Source: Patescibacteria group bacterium (GTDB taxonomy: Bacteria > Patescibacteriota > Minisyncoccia > Phycocordibacterales > SBAW01). Taken from it: a DNA stretch of 64,000 nt. The position numbers and the translations under genes are program-made. The notes under the pieces are model-generated. The model saw only the letters and a program-made list of their open reading frames with translations. It was not told where the DNA came from and ran no database searches. The DNA is taken from positions 11,577-75,576 of the forward strand of contig JACOWS010000001.1 in assembly GCA_016176685.1 (NCBI GenBank), given 5' to 3'. Below, one piece after another: positions 10,540-13,500 of the stretch. Within the stretch, counting starts at the first letter, position 1. The number at the start of each line of letters is the position of its first letter.

Positions 10540-13500
10540 TCAACACGGGAAGGAACTTGATCGATTAGTACTCCTCGGCTTAATGCCTTACGGCACGTAC
10601 ACCTAGAGCCTATCAACGTGGTCATCTCCCACGGATCGTAATGATTACTCATCTTAGAGTCGGCTTCGCGCTTAGATGCTTTCAGCGCTTATCCAATCCC
10701 GACATAGCTACCCAGCAATCCACCTGGCGGCAGAGCTGGTAGACCAGCGGTCAGTTCACTCCGGTCCTCTCGTACTAGGAGCAAATCTCTTCAATAATCG
10801 ACGCCTGCAGTAGATAGGAGACCAACCTGTCTCACGCATGTTCTCACGAATTACTCCGTGCATTGGACTGTAACTTCATCCTCTCACATTGAGAGAACTG
10901 CTAACGTTCAGTCTCTACGGGTATTTATGAACTTCATTGAGGGGGGAACCGAGGTTCCCCTTGCTTTTACTGGGGGTGCCAGTCAAGCTTTCTCACTTCT
11001 TCAAGTGAGTGAAAGGAGCAGTTCGATCTGGTGGTACACTCTTGTACCCTCTTCCAGGCTTCCTGCGCCTGTCGTGTCGCATCATTGTCGTCCTGCGCCG
11101 AAATTGGATATTCTCCACTTTCGGATTCTCGCGGACCATATGGATCTGGTTGACACAAGGCCGAGAAACGCATCGTATAGCTTTTCATTCCATATCCTCC
11201 TCTATCTTTACTTCCTCAATGAAATTCACAAACTTCCCTCGGTATTACCCCATAGGGGCTTCACCGATATAAGTTAGCTTCTTCCCGATATAACATCGGG
11301 ACCGCCGTGATTGGTTGTTTCTTATCTATTCTATATATGTCTTTCGACATAGTTCTTAGACGAAAACTTTTAAACAGAATCCTCGTGGGGTTCAGATCGT
11401 TCAAATTCCCAACTTTCATCAAGGCAAGGCCTTGATATTTTGAGATGCTGAACGGTCTGAACCCAGCTCGCGTATCATTTTAATTGGCGAACAGCCAAAC
11501 CCTTGGGAGCTTCTCCACCCCCGGGATATGATGAGCCGACATCGAGGTGCCGAACTCCGCCGTCGCTATGGACGCTTAGGCGGAACTAGCCTGTTATCCC
11601 CAGAGTAGCTTTTATCAGATAATCTTCCACCGCGTCTAATACGGATGGTCGGTTCACTATGGCCTGCTTTCGCACCTGCTTGGCATTCACGCCTCGCAGT
11701 CAAGCACCCTTTTGCCATTACGCTATCGGCACGGTTTCCATTCGCGCCTAGGGTACCGTAATGCACTCCTCCGTTACTTTTTAGGAGGATAGCGCCCCAC
11801 TAAAACTACCCACCAGATACTGTTTCGATGCCGTTTTGCGGCACCGGTTAGCGTATACAATCGAACAGAGTGGTATTTCACTGACGAGTAGATCCCATCC
11901 AAAAACGGGACCGTCAAACCTCTCCCACCTATGCTACGCAGCACAACCGTATACGCAATATCAAGCTGTAGTAAAGCTTCTGGGGTCTTTTCGTCTAACT
12001 GCAGGTAACCGGCATCTTCACCGGTACTGTATTTTCACCGAGCTGTGCTCCGAGACAGTTCCCCAGTCGTTACACTATTCGTGCGCGTCTGAACTTACCA
12101 GACAAGGAATTTCGCTACCTTAGGACGATTATAGTTATCGCCGACATTCACCAGGGCTTACACAAATCACCAGTACATATTGCTACATACCAACGTTCGT
12201 GGTTGACCTTCTGGCATTGGTCAAGTGTCACCCCCTATACATCCTCTTACGAGTTCGCAGGGAGCTGTGTTTTTGGTAAACAGTCGCCAGGGAGACTTTC
12301 GCTGCGGCCTCTATTGCTAGAGGCAGGCCTTATTCCGAAGGTACGGCCGATTTTTTGCCGAGTTCCTTGGAGCACACTCACTCGTTCGCCTTGGTCTACT
12401 CGACCTGATCACCTGTGTCGGTTTGCGGTACGGTCGTACATAGGATGAAGCTTAGAAGTTTTTCTTGGCGAGCTCTTCGCAGCGGTCCTCTCTCTCCGAG
12501 GAGAGAGCATACCCCCGCGCCCAACGATAGTGCTATTAAAAGCAGTACACCGGATTTTCCTGGTGTACCCATCTCAAAGCGCAGACGTCAATCCAATAAG
12601 ACGCCACTCCTTGTGTCTCGCGTAACTCCATCGCACCTATGCCGGTTGGGGAATATTAACCCCATGTCCATCACCTGCGGCTTTCGCCATCGGCTTAGGC
12701 CCGACTAACCCTTGGCTGATCACCATCGCCAAGGAAACCTTGATCTTTCGGCGTGCGGGGCTCTCACCCGCATTGCGGTTACTTGTGCCTGCATTCTCTC
12801 TTCCATACGCTCCACTGTGGCTCGCGCCTTCAGCTTCATTGCAAATGGAATGCTCTCTTACCACTCGCGTTCATGGCAAGCCATGAGCGCGAATCCTCAG
12901 TTTCGGTACTACGTTTTAGCCCCGATTATCTTCGGCGCAAAATCTCTCGATGAGTGAGCTGTTACGCTTTCTTTTAATGATGGCTGCTTCTAAGCCAACA
13001 TCCTCATTGTCTAAGAAATTTCACCTCCTTGTGATGCACTTAACGTAGATTTTGGGACCTTAACTGGAGATCTAGGACTCTTCTCCTTTCGTACGGTGGA
13101 GCTTAGCCCCCACGTACTAACTGCCGTATAACGCAAATGGTATTCGGAGTTTGATAGGGTTAGTGAGCTTGCGCCCTGTCTAACCCTTCCAGTGCTCTAC
13201 CCCCACTTGCCAATAAATACGACGCCAACCCAAAAGTTGTTTCAGAGAGAACCAGCTATTACAAGGTTCGATTAGCTTTTCACTCCAACCCACAAGTCAT
13301 CCGAGAGTTTTGAACGGCTCAACGGTTCGGGCCTCCATGTGCCTTTCGGCACATTTCACCCTGCTCATGGGTAGCTCACCTTGCTTCGGGTCTTATGCAT
13401 GCTACTTCCCCCCGCCAAAGGCGGGGAATTCGCGCTATTCACACTCGGTTTCCCTGCGGCTTCGAGGTTTTACCCCTTAGCCATACGCAGCATACATAAA

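Follow-up and report, generated by a model that had tools for sequence, protein, structure and literature searches.

The 23S rRNA gene in a 64-kb stretch of a contig from a Patescibacteria group bacterium (JACOWS010000001.1; the whole stretch that was analysed is called the window here) is interrupted by a 615-nt insert in helix 93 of the peptidyl-transferase region. This insert is in all likelihood a self-splicing group I intron of the Parcubacteria-type 23S genes of the candidate phyla radiation (CPR, or Patescibacteria). It combines a ribozyme core with two unusual elements, a 13-nt segment called X here, which pairs with the 5' exon in addition to the internal guide sequence, and a passenger cassette in P6 that holds a 73-codon open reading frame (ORF). 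The evidence comes from base pairing and covariation among related introns, from complementarity to both exons and from remote homologs of the ORF.

The insert and its group I core

All features below lie on the minus strand of the window unless stated otherwise. The Rfam large-subunit model places the 23S rRNA gene at 10550-14171, with its 5' end at 14171. The gene reads GGGUUCAGACCGU, then the insert (UCAGCAUC...GAGAACAUG), then CGUGAGACAGGUUGG; in wider context the 23S sequence ...GCUGGGUUCAGACCGU is followed by 615 nt and then by CGUGAGACAGGUUGGUC.... The insert runs from 11451 to 10837 (10837..11451), follows an exon U and ends with a G, the omega-G, at 10837. In the alignment the uninterrupted E. 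coli counterpart is GAACGU-CGUGAGACAG, and the insertion point is, in E. coli numbering, between U2593 and C2594. A direct reading thus agrees with the original prediction, made from the sequence alone, of a 615-nt insert at the I-CreI-type site after an exon U and ending in G. The predicted mature 23S of ~3.0 kb was also correct, as the gene is ~3,007 nt long when the insert is removed. Another 11 independent metagenome contigs (L001-L010, L136) carry the same insert with the same junctions at ~89% identity; they come from different ENA and JGI samples and also share the downstream synteny. L001-L010 are from aquifer samples (ERZ27254xxx, ANAN16, JGI 3300025030). The 23S exons are 91-92% identical to those of Ca. 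Nomurabacteria and Ca. Adlerbacteria metagenome-assembled genomes (MAGs).

A search with the Rfam group I model (RF00028, Intron_gpI) gave a full-length match of 22.5 bits (E = 0.0018 on a 691-nt stretch). The alignment lays out a P3-P9 core, with P6 holding a 285-nt insertion, and reaches the terminal G. This core was compared across 46 family members in an anchored core alignment, which was used instead of a MAFFT whole-intron alignment (423 columns) that misaligned the hairpins; relatives with a P7.1/P7.2-type extension were set apart from the family set. In the window there is no such extension, only AAC (3 nt) between GACUG and GUUAGC. P3 pairs GCUAAC (11273..11278) with GUUAGC (10900..10905) and covaries at 6/6 pairs. 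P7, the guanosine-binding helix, forms a pseudoknot with P3 and pairs GACUG (10909..10913) with CAGUC (10866..10870). Its variable purine-pyrimidine pair is A-U in 34 sequences, G-C in 12 and unpaired in 0; among the window and its close relatives the helix is GACUG/CAGUC in 2 sequences and GACUA/UAGUC in 3. The P3 and P7 pairings that the original prediction had suggested looking for are therefore both present and both covary. P4 (UCGGU/ACCGA) surrounds the P5 hairpin (CCCCuauGGGG) at 11239..11267 in the Rfam alignment; it is 96.5% paired, with one covarying pair. P6 (10919..11238) has a GGG/CCC base that is 100% paired with one compensatory change, and a 20-bp extension stem with the cargo at its tip. 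The P8 hairpin (10878..10898) covaries at 4/4 basal pairs and has three different versions among the close relatives. P9 (10845..10860), CACGGA-GUAA-UUCGUG with a GNRA tetraloop, covaries at 6/6 pairs, and close relatives replace CACGG..UCGUG with CACAC..GUGUG (G-C to A-U, G.U to C-G). The P2 hairpin (CCGAUguuauAUCGG, 11285..11299) is, like P8, swapped for another hairpin of the same shape among four distinct ~89%-identical relatives.

In total, 97.2% of the core cells are paired in the 46 sequences, compared with 87.2% when shuffled and 22-41% when slid. Double changes were found at 20 pairs, a number reached by 0/500 shuffles; covarying pairs are found throughout P3, P8 and P9, and P7, P6 and P4 contribute one each. 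The omega-G and U.G rule, the P1/P10 pairing described below and the covarying P3-P9 core uphold the group I assignment of the original prediction, and by these features the insert is a group I intron at 23S position 2593. When P2 (11285-11299) and P8 (10878-10898) are compared with those of L004 and L007, each is replaced wholesale in intron copies that are otherwise ~97% identical. This may reflect modular exchange or a co-evolving loop-receptor pair.

A species-level scan (one genome per species) for an insert at the 2593 site that ends in G and has YAGUC, the motif of the P7 3' strand, 12-42 nt upstream of its end matched at least 120 species genomes, which are mostly Patescibacteria; the non-Patescibacteria among the matches listed are Acidimicrobiaceae, Chloroflexota, Omnitrophota, Armatimonadota and a Thermosynechococcus. 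Dozens of site-2593 introns are matched over their 5' 210 nt and 3' 90 nt by a hidden Markov model that was built from the window intron plus its close relatives (E-values down to 5e-31). The original prediction had allowed for a different class of insertion. This was not borne out, given the full group I core; no group II intron was matched inside the insert at E <= 10, and the sole weak group II match (17.8 bits) lies elsewhere in the 23S. ARAGORN found no tRNA in the insert, and the matches to other known RNAs in Rfam were at chance level (an rpsL leader at 24 bits, a miRNA and a snoRNA).

Two exon-binding segments at the 5' splice site

The internal guide sequence, UCACG-GCGGUC (11300..11310), is a near-perfect complement of the ligated junction GACCGU-CGUGA and places a G opposite the splice-site U. 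GCGGUC pairs with GACCGU to form P1, and UCACG pairs with the first 5 nt of the 3' exon (CGUGA, 10832..10836) to form P10. Across the 46 sequences P1 is 98.9% paired and P10 93.9% paired. The U.G wobble at the splice site is present in 46/46, and the next three P1 pairs (G-C, then C-G and C-G) in 46/46, 46/46 and 44/46. A compensatory change is found in L068, where the exon GAACGU is matched by GCGU while the others have GACCGU with GCGG (exon A, guide-sequence U). In non-CPR introns at 2593 this motif is the sole candidate guide, at a distance of 5-14 nt from the 5' splice site. In the window it begins at intron nt 142, downstream of a hairpin, conserved in the family, in which 13 nt of the 5' exon are paired; in this position it was missed by the original prediction.

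The strand that forms this hairpin with the exon is element X (ACGAUCUGAACCC, 11388..11400), a 13-mer that is 12/13 complementary to the last 13 nt of the 5' exon (11452..11464). Both X and the guide sequence thus bind these exon nucleotides, and each of the two segments is unique in the window; for an X-type match 0.05 would be expected there by chance. X pairs with exon positions -13 to -1, and the distal 9 bp (positions -13 to -5) are paired in 97.3% of cells. An exon C to U change is answered by a G to A change in X in 3/3 cases. The helix extends past the splice site into the intron, where intron nt 1-51 (11401..11451) contribute UCAG/UUGA pairs and an apical hairpin (AUCAAGGCCUUGCCUUGAU, 11436-11418). 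In the 46 members the first 6 intron nt and the 6 nt before X have a mean of 5.1/6 paired, compared with 2.7 in slid controls, and compensated variants include UCAG/UUGA, UUAG/CUAA, GGAG/CUCC and others. The whole splice-site hairpin is the predicted minimum-energy structure (z = -5.6); at least 46 CPR introns conserve it, with covariation. The P1 loop that results is ~140 nt long in the window; the distance from the 5' end of the intron to the guide sequence ranges over 57-240 nt in the family. Two further hairpins lie in this enlarged L1 region. One (ACGAGGAUUCUGUUUAAAAGUUUUCGU, 11360..11386) has homologous CGAG...UUUCG hairpins in family members, and the other (UAUGUCGAAAGACAUA, 11336..11351) is, by alignment and fold, peculiar to the window, as the 89%-identical relatives do not have it.

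X was also considered as the true P1 partner and was rejected. It presents an A to the splice-site U in 40/46 sequences, the window among them, and leaves exon C(-3) unpaired in 37/46, so that C(-3) pairs with X in 9/46 and with the guide sequence in 46/46. X has no P10 potential, whereas GCGG is perfect in 46/46 and is the sole exon-binding site in relatives that lack X.

How does the intron hold on to a 5' exon of ~2,700 nt? In the proposed mechanism X and the first intron bases enclose the 5' splice site in a long hairpin. The distal 9 bp of the exon-X helix would stay paired and keep the 5' exon on the intron, and the proximal 4 bp, with their conserved mismatch, would open and let the guide sequence take over CCGU. 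Two guanosine-initiated transesterifications would excise the intron from the pre-rRNA and restore GACCGU-CGUGAG. From these pairings it is suggested that X is an exon tether plus a folding or timing switch, and it may explain the grip of the intron on its very long 5' exon. L097 has CUGAACC and CACGGCGG and no hairpin; its two segments bind adjacent exon stretches, which fits the reading of a distal tether. The data agree equally well with X as an on/off switch alone, or with X as an aid to recognition of the target in reverse splicing.

The P6 cassette and other P6 cargo

In place of the entire P6 hairpin beyond the GGG/CCC base there is a 311-nt cassette (10923..11233) bounded by the inverted repeat GUUUGUGAAUUUCAUUGAGG ... 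CCUCAAUGAAGUUCAUAAAU. In order it consists of one arm of a perfect 20-bp stem, a 7-nt Shine-Dalgarno sequence (AGGAGGA, 11195..11201), a 6-nt gap, an ATG that opens 73 codons (10967..11188; MKSYTMRF...LDWHPQ), a GC hairpin (GGGGAACCUCGGUUCCCC, 10943..10960) between the stop codon and the 3' arm, and the closing arm. As an RNA the cassette is strongly structured (fold z = -3.87). The original prediction had listed the longest sense ORF of the insert at 73 aa and an antisense ORF of 139 aa, and this inventory stands; the sense ORF runs 11188->10967, and neither ORF matches any Pfam family. The description of the intron as ORF-less does not stand, as the sense ORF has the Shine-Dalgarno sequence, remote homologs of the same length, coding-type substitutions and a confident predicted fold. 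The antisense ORF, at 10858-11277 on the plus strand, overlaps the ribozyme core and is in all probability spurious. In database entry P0002 (146 aa), a frameshift fusion, the ribozyme core is read through into the 73-aa ORF.

A word-indexed protein search with the 73-aa ORF matches only a 93%-identical cluster from close relatives. An exhaustive phmmer search of 1.8 billion proteins adds P0005 (72 aa, 40% identical end to end, E = 1e-5) and P0006 (87 aa, 38% identical, E = 2e-4). Overall the homologs are 38-41% identical, similar in length and keep the start, the stop and the Shine-Dalgarno sequence. The invariant residues of this tiny orphan family follow the pattern K.Y..A..Q..G..E..I..D..A..A..W..C..E.R..DW.P. 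Identity at the three codon positions of the ORF is 0.55/0.65/0.32, and across comparisons it is 0.57-0.65 at the second position and 0.32-0.43 at the third. AlphaFold, given 4 sequences, predicts a beta-beta-alpha-beta fold with a predicted local distance difference test score (pLDDT) of 83 and a predicted template modelling score (pTM) of 0.65. On account of the codon-position identities and the predicted fold the ORF is probably a real gene. Searches of Pfam, NCBIfam, PHROG and PDB sequences gave no match for it, and Foldseek found nothing in the PDB at E < 0.1 for the predicted fold. These searches thus showed no signature of the GIY-YIG, HNH, His-Cys box or PD-(D/E)xK endonucleases in the ORF, and the alignment has no invariant His or Asn.

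Homologous cassettes are also found outside the intron, in relatives where the gene lies between the 23S 3' end and the 5S (L131, 201-497; L132-L134, 199-542). They have the same arrangement of stem, Shine-Dalgarno sequence, ORF and hairpin; the stem is GUUCGUGAACUUCAUUGAGG ... CCUUCAAUGAAGUUCACGAAC, the post-stop hairpin is GGGGAACUUCGGUUCCCC, and a Shine-Dalgarno-like GGAG or GGAGGA precedes the homologous ORFs in L131 and L132. Compared with the window the stem covaries, with U-A replaced by C-G at two positions. The DNA of the ORF has diverged to the point that no more than its last 30 nt are alignable. The organisms with spacer cassettes are related to that of the window, since their 23S tails are 81-82% and their 5S genes 83-85% identical to those of the window, with homologous spacer flanks and, downstream, the same 255-aa and FtsW/RodA genes. 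The window's own 23S-5S spacer (about 10427-10549) has two hairpins that are unrelated to the stem-bounded ORF cassette. A scan of JGI metagenomes with a 21-mer from the stem and hairpin found one further close relative and one chance match, a profile search of a 5.8-billion-protein set found no new ORF cluster, and no cassette was found in viral contigs by DNA or protein search. A count of Shine-Dalgarno sequences before long ORFs of the window (5/28) relied on uncurated starts, was too crude and was not used.

Would the P6 insert be better explained as RNA alone, that is, as a structured extension of P6 or a decayed passenger in which the 73-codon ORF is fortuitous and untranslated? Several observations weigh against a gene and favour this explanation. 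Between the window ORF and its 93%-identical relatives 5/6 substitutions are non-synonymous, and 3 of the 6 lie in or fit an RNA hairpin. The protein family consists of three clusters with no known domain or database match, the codon-position test is based on a protein-guided alignment, the cassette folds strongly as RNA, and non-coding cargo (a tRNA) occupies the same place in other family members. However, homologs of 38-41% identity preserve the length, start, stop and Shine-Dalgarno sequence although only the 3' end of their DNA can still be aligned. Identity is close to random at third codon positions and highest at second positions, and four sequences were enough for a compact predicted fold. 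An RNA-only insert is therefore considered unlikely, and the reading of the ORF as a small protein gene is preferred.

The original prediction had also considered a minimal ribozyme whose homing-endonuclease gene has degraded. In sister introns of greater length (706-835 nt) at this site in other genomes, L6, which lies between P4' and P7, contains ORFs of 150-206 aa. These have the YIAGFLDGDGSI motif and match Pfam LAGLIDADG_1 (or LAGLIDADG_2), and their nearest solved relatives are I-MsoI, I-CvuI and I-CreI. In the window intron no remnant of a LAGLIDADG gene was detected by Pfam, by tblastn with 29 ORFs from the longer sister introns, or with a profile of 18 sister endonucleases (hmmsearch --max), for which the best score over six frames was -0.1 bits. 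This part of the prediction was dropped.

The cargo at P6 varies in other members as well. At P6 the closest intron relative, L109, has a 14-nt hairpin that is unrelated. In L105, a Ca. Paceibacterota MAG with an intron at the same 23S site (2515-2963, minus strand), a complete tRNA-Arg(UCU) that ends in CCA lies on the rRNA strand at the tip of the long P6 stem (2644-2719). L088 and L058 have tRNA-like sequences at P6, and long P6 stems with other cargo are present in L088, L058 and L063. The unrelated hairpin of L109, the tRNA of L105 and the other cargo of L088, L058 and L063 suggest that P6 modules are exchanged.

In the proposed explanation the P6 cassette is a small passenger gene that would ride on transcription of the rRNA operon; as a guess, it would be released by cleavage of its long stem. 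A wider and tentative proposal, which is given somewhat less than an even chance, is that a stem-bounded mobile cassette relocates between two non-coding, excised places of the rRNA operon, the 23S-5S spacer and the P6 loop of the 2593 intron, and is expressed through rRNA-level transcription and stem processing, while an intron-encoded second exon strand masks and tethers the 5' splice site. Sister introns with tRNA genes on the same long P6 stem lead to the further idea, part of the same proposal, that rRNA introns may act as gene-carrying platforms rather than mere endonuclease vehicles.

Other readings of the intron and its surroundings

A number of points count against the preferred explanation. 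The Rfam match is under the gathering threshold of 50 bits, so that the Rfam check proposed by the original prediction gave a full-length alignment and fell short in score; homologous short introns at the same site exceed the cut-off (L056 at 56.3, L098 at 54.6 and L109 at 50.3 bits), and the low score is plausibly due to the 311-nt and ~140-nt insertions. The percent paired is inflated by P3, P9, X and the guide sequence, for which the best register out of a few was taken; double substitutions cannot arise from this choice. Most members of the family have a GNRA loop on P2, which is missing in the lineage of the window. By prediction a P1 of 4-6 bp is much less stable than the splice-site hairpin, and unaided self-splicing could thus be slow or cofactor-dependent.

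It may be asked, then, whether the ribozyme is crippled, so that it needs a host factor, or the small protein as a maturase or chaperone, or splices very inefficiently. The placement of the 5' splice site inside a very stable hairpin, the A that faces U(-1) in most members including the window, the lost GNRA loop of L2, the low Rfam score, and the unpaired changes in P4 and P5 of L005 are all consistent with such a defect. Against it, all core helices, J8/7, the guide sequence and the omega-G are intact, and they evolve by compensatory changes even between copies that are 89% identical. As the site belongs to the peptidyl-transferase centre, failure to splice should be lethal. The idea of a dedicated maturase is also at odds with the presence of the same small ORF outside any intron, in the spacer. 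A crippled ribozyme is accordingly judged improbable, more so than an RNA-only P6 insert, and the intron is read as a probably active group I ribozyme.

A third possibility is that the insert is an intervening sequence or expansion segment, either retained in the mature 23S or cut by RNase III without ligation to leave a fragmented rRNA. Many CPR 23S insertions are not introns, and intervening sequences of the RNase III type are present at other sites (PMC11270868); in the window the exon-X hairpin and the 20-bp P6 stem resemble double-stranded RNA substrates. An RNase III intervening sequence is a simple hairpin that replaces an rRNA loop and has no ribozyme core, but here the group I core is complete and covaries and the guide sequence is complementary to both exons. 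The site is within helix 93 of the peptidyl-transferase region, and cutting the exon-X helix would destroy exon sequence. There is very little chance that this explanation is correct. A misassembly or chimeric contig, which the original prediction had allowed for, can be dismissed almost entirely, as it is refuted by the 11 contigs from different samples that share the junctions and the downstream synteny.

Going along the minus strand, the 23S is followed by the 5S rRNA gene (10426->10313, Rfam), ~10 kb of protein genes (a 251-aa protein, FtsW/RodA and glycosyltransferases) and the 16S rRNA gene (1-279, Rfam). The 16S is thus downstream of the 23S-5S pair and unlinked from it in the window. 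In domain I of the 23S, at ~13821-13910, an insertion of ~47 nt relative to the Rfam bacterial model forms its own hairpin. L001, L002, L005, L006 and L008 have extra 23S introns that encode LAGLIDADG_1 or LAGLIDADG_2 proteins, and the corresponding sites are uninterrupted in the window (~11786, ~12100 and ~12315). The rRNA introns show presence/absence polymorphism within one lineage.

Comparison with known systems

Azoarcus and Anabaena tRNA introns (subgroup IC3) are compact, have GNRA loops on P2 and P9 and lack P5abc. The present family would resemble these introns in that its minimal members (213-290 nt) share P2, P3-P8, P4-P6, a simple P5 and the GNRA loop on P9. The differences are the rRNA host gene, the enlarged P1 loop with its second exon-binding segment, and the loss of the P2 GNRA loop in the window lineage. 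In Tetrahymena pre-rRNA an alternative 5'-exon helix, P(-1), was reportedly described by Woodson and Cech as competing with P1. There, as here, a helix of the last 5'-exon nucleotides competes with P1 and could time the availability of the splice site. In Tetrahymena, however, both strands of the helix are exon, whereas here the competing strand comes from the intron and covaries across an intron family, and the distal 9 bp of the exon-X helix are compatible with a simultaneous P1. The conserved 13-nt exon-pairing strand could naturally serve as an exon tether or a splicing switch.

At the same 23S site, the chloroplast L2593 intron Cr.LSU carries I-CreI. The cyanobacterial L2593 introns of Synechococcus and Thermosynechococcus have P7.1/P7.2, a short P1 loop, a short P2 and a LAGLIDADG gene (Haugen et al. 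2007, PMC1995217). The window intron has the same site, the CAC(G/U)GCG(G/U) guide motif and cargo in P6 in common with the chloroplast and cyanobacterial introns. It differs from them in that it has no P7.1/P7.2, has a ~140-nt P1 loop with X and carries different cargo.

The 23S genes of CPR bacteria are rich in inserts, of which ~45% were classed as group I by Rfam, and 2593 is a frequent insert site ('23IS12') with a typical ORF of the LAGLIDADG_1 type (Tsurumaki et al. 2024, J Bacteriol, PMC11270868). The comparison with a catalogue of CPR 23S introns that the original prediction had suggested therefore places the window intron at a listed site. It shares the host group, the insertion site and the ribozyme class with the catalogued 2593 introns; these were classified by Rfam, while the window intron fails the Rfam cut-off and has no LAGLIDADG ORF. 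In a limited literature search no description of X or of a cassette without an endonuclease was found in that study (PMC11270868) or elsewhere. A 2593 intron is in itself ordinary for CPR bacteria, and the present case is a worked example of how inserts that Rfam leaves unclassified are provable as group I by comparison.

Spacer tRNAs and intron-borne homing endonuclease genes are likewise passenger genes that lie in an excised, non-coding part of the rRNA transcript, in a loop that tolerates insertions. The passenger here differs in being neither a tRNA nor a nuclease, and as a module bounded by a stem it occupies two different niches of one operon. A real-looking small gene other than a nuclease in P6, its spacer copies and the tRNA cargo point to a use of rRNA introns and spacers as high-expression slots for small genes in these reduced genomes, and the module is possibly a new kind of tiny mobile cassette. 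The window intron is thus of a known class, at a known site and in a known host group, and structurally it is a variant, distinguished by the absence of P7.1/P7.2, the enlarged P1 loop with X and the non-nuclease cassette.

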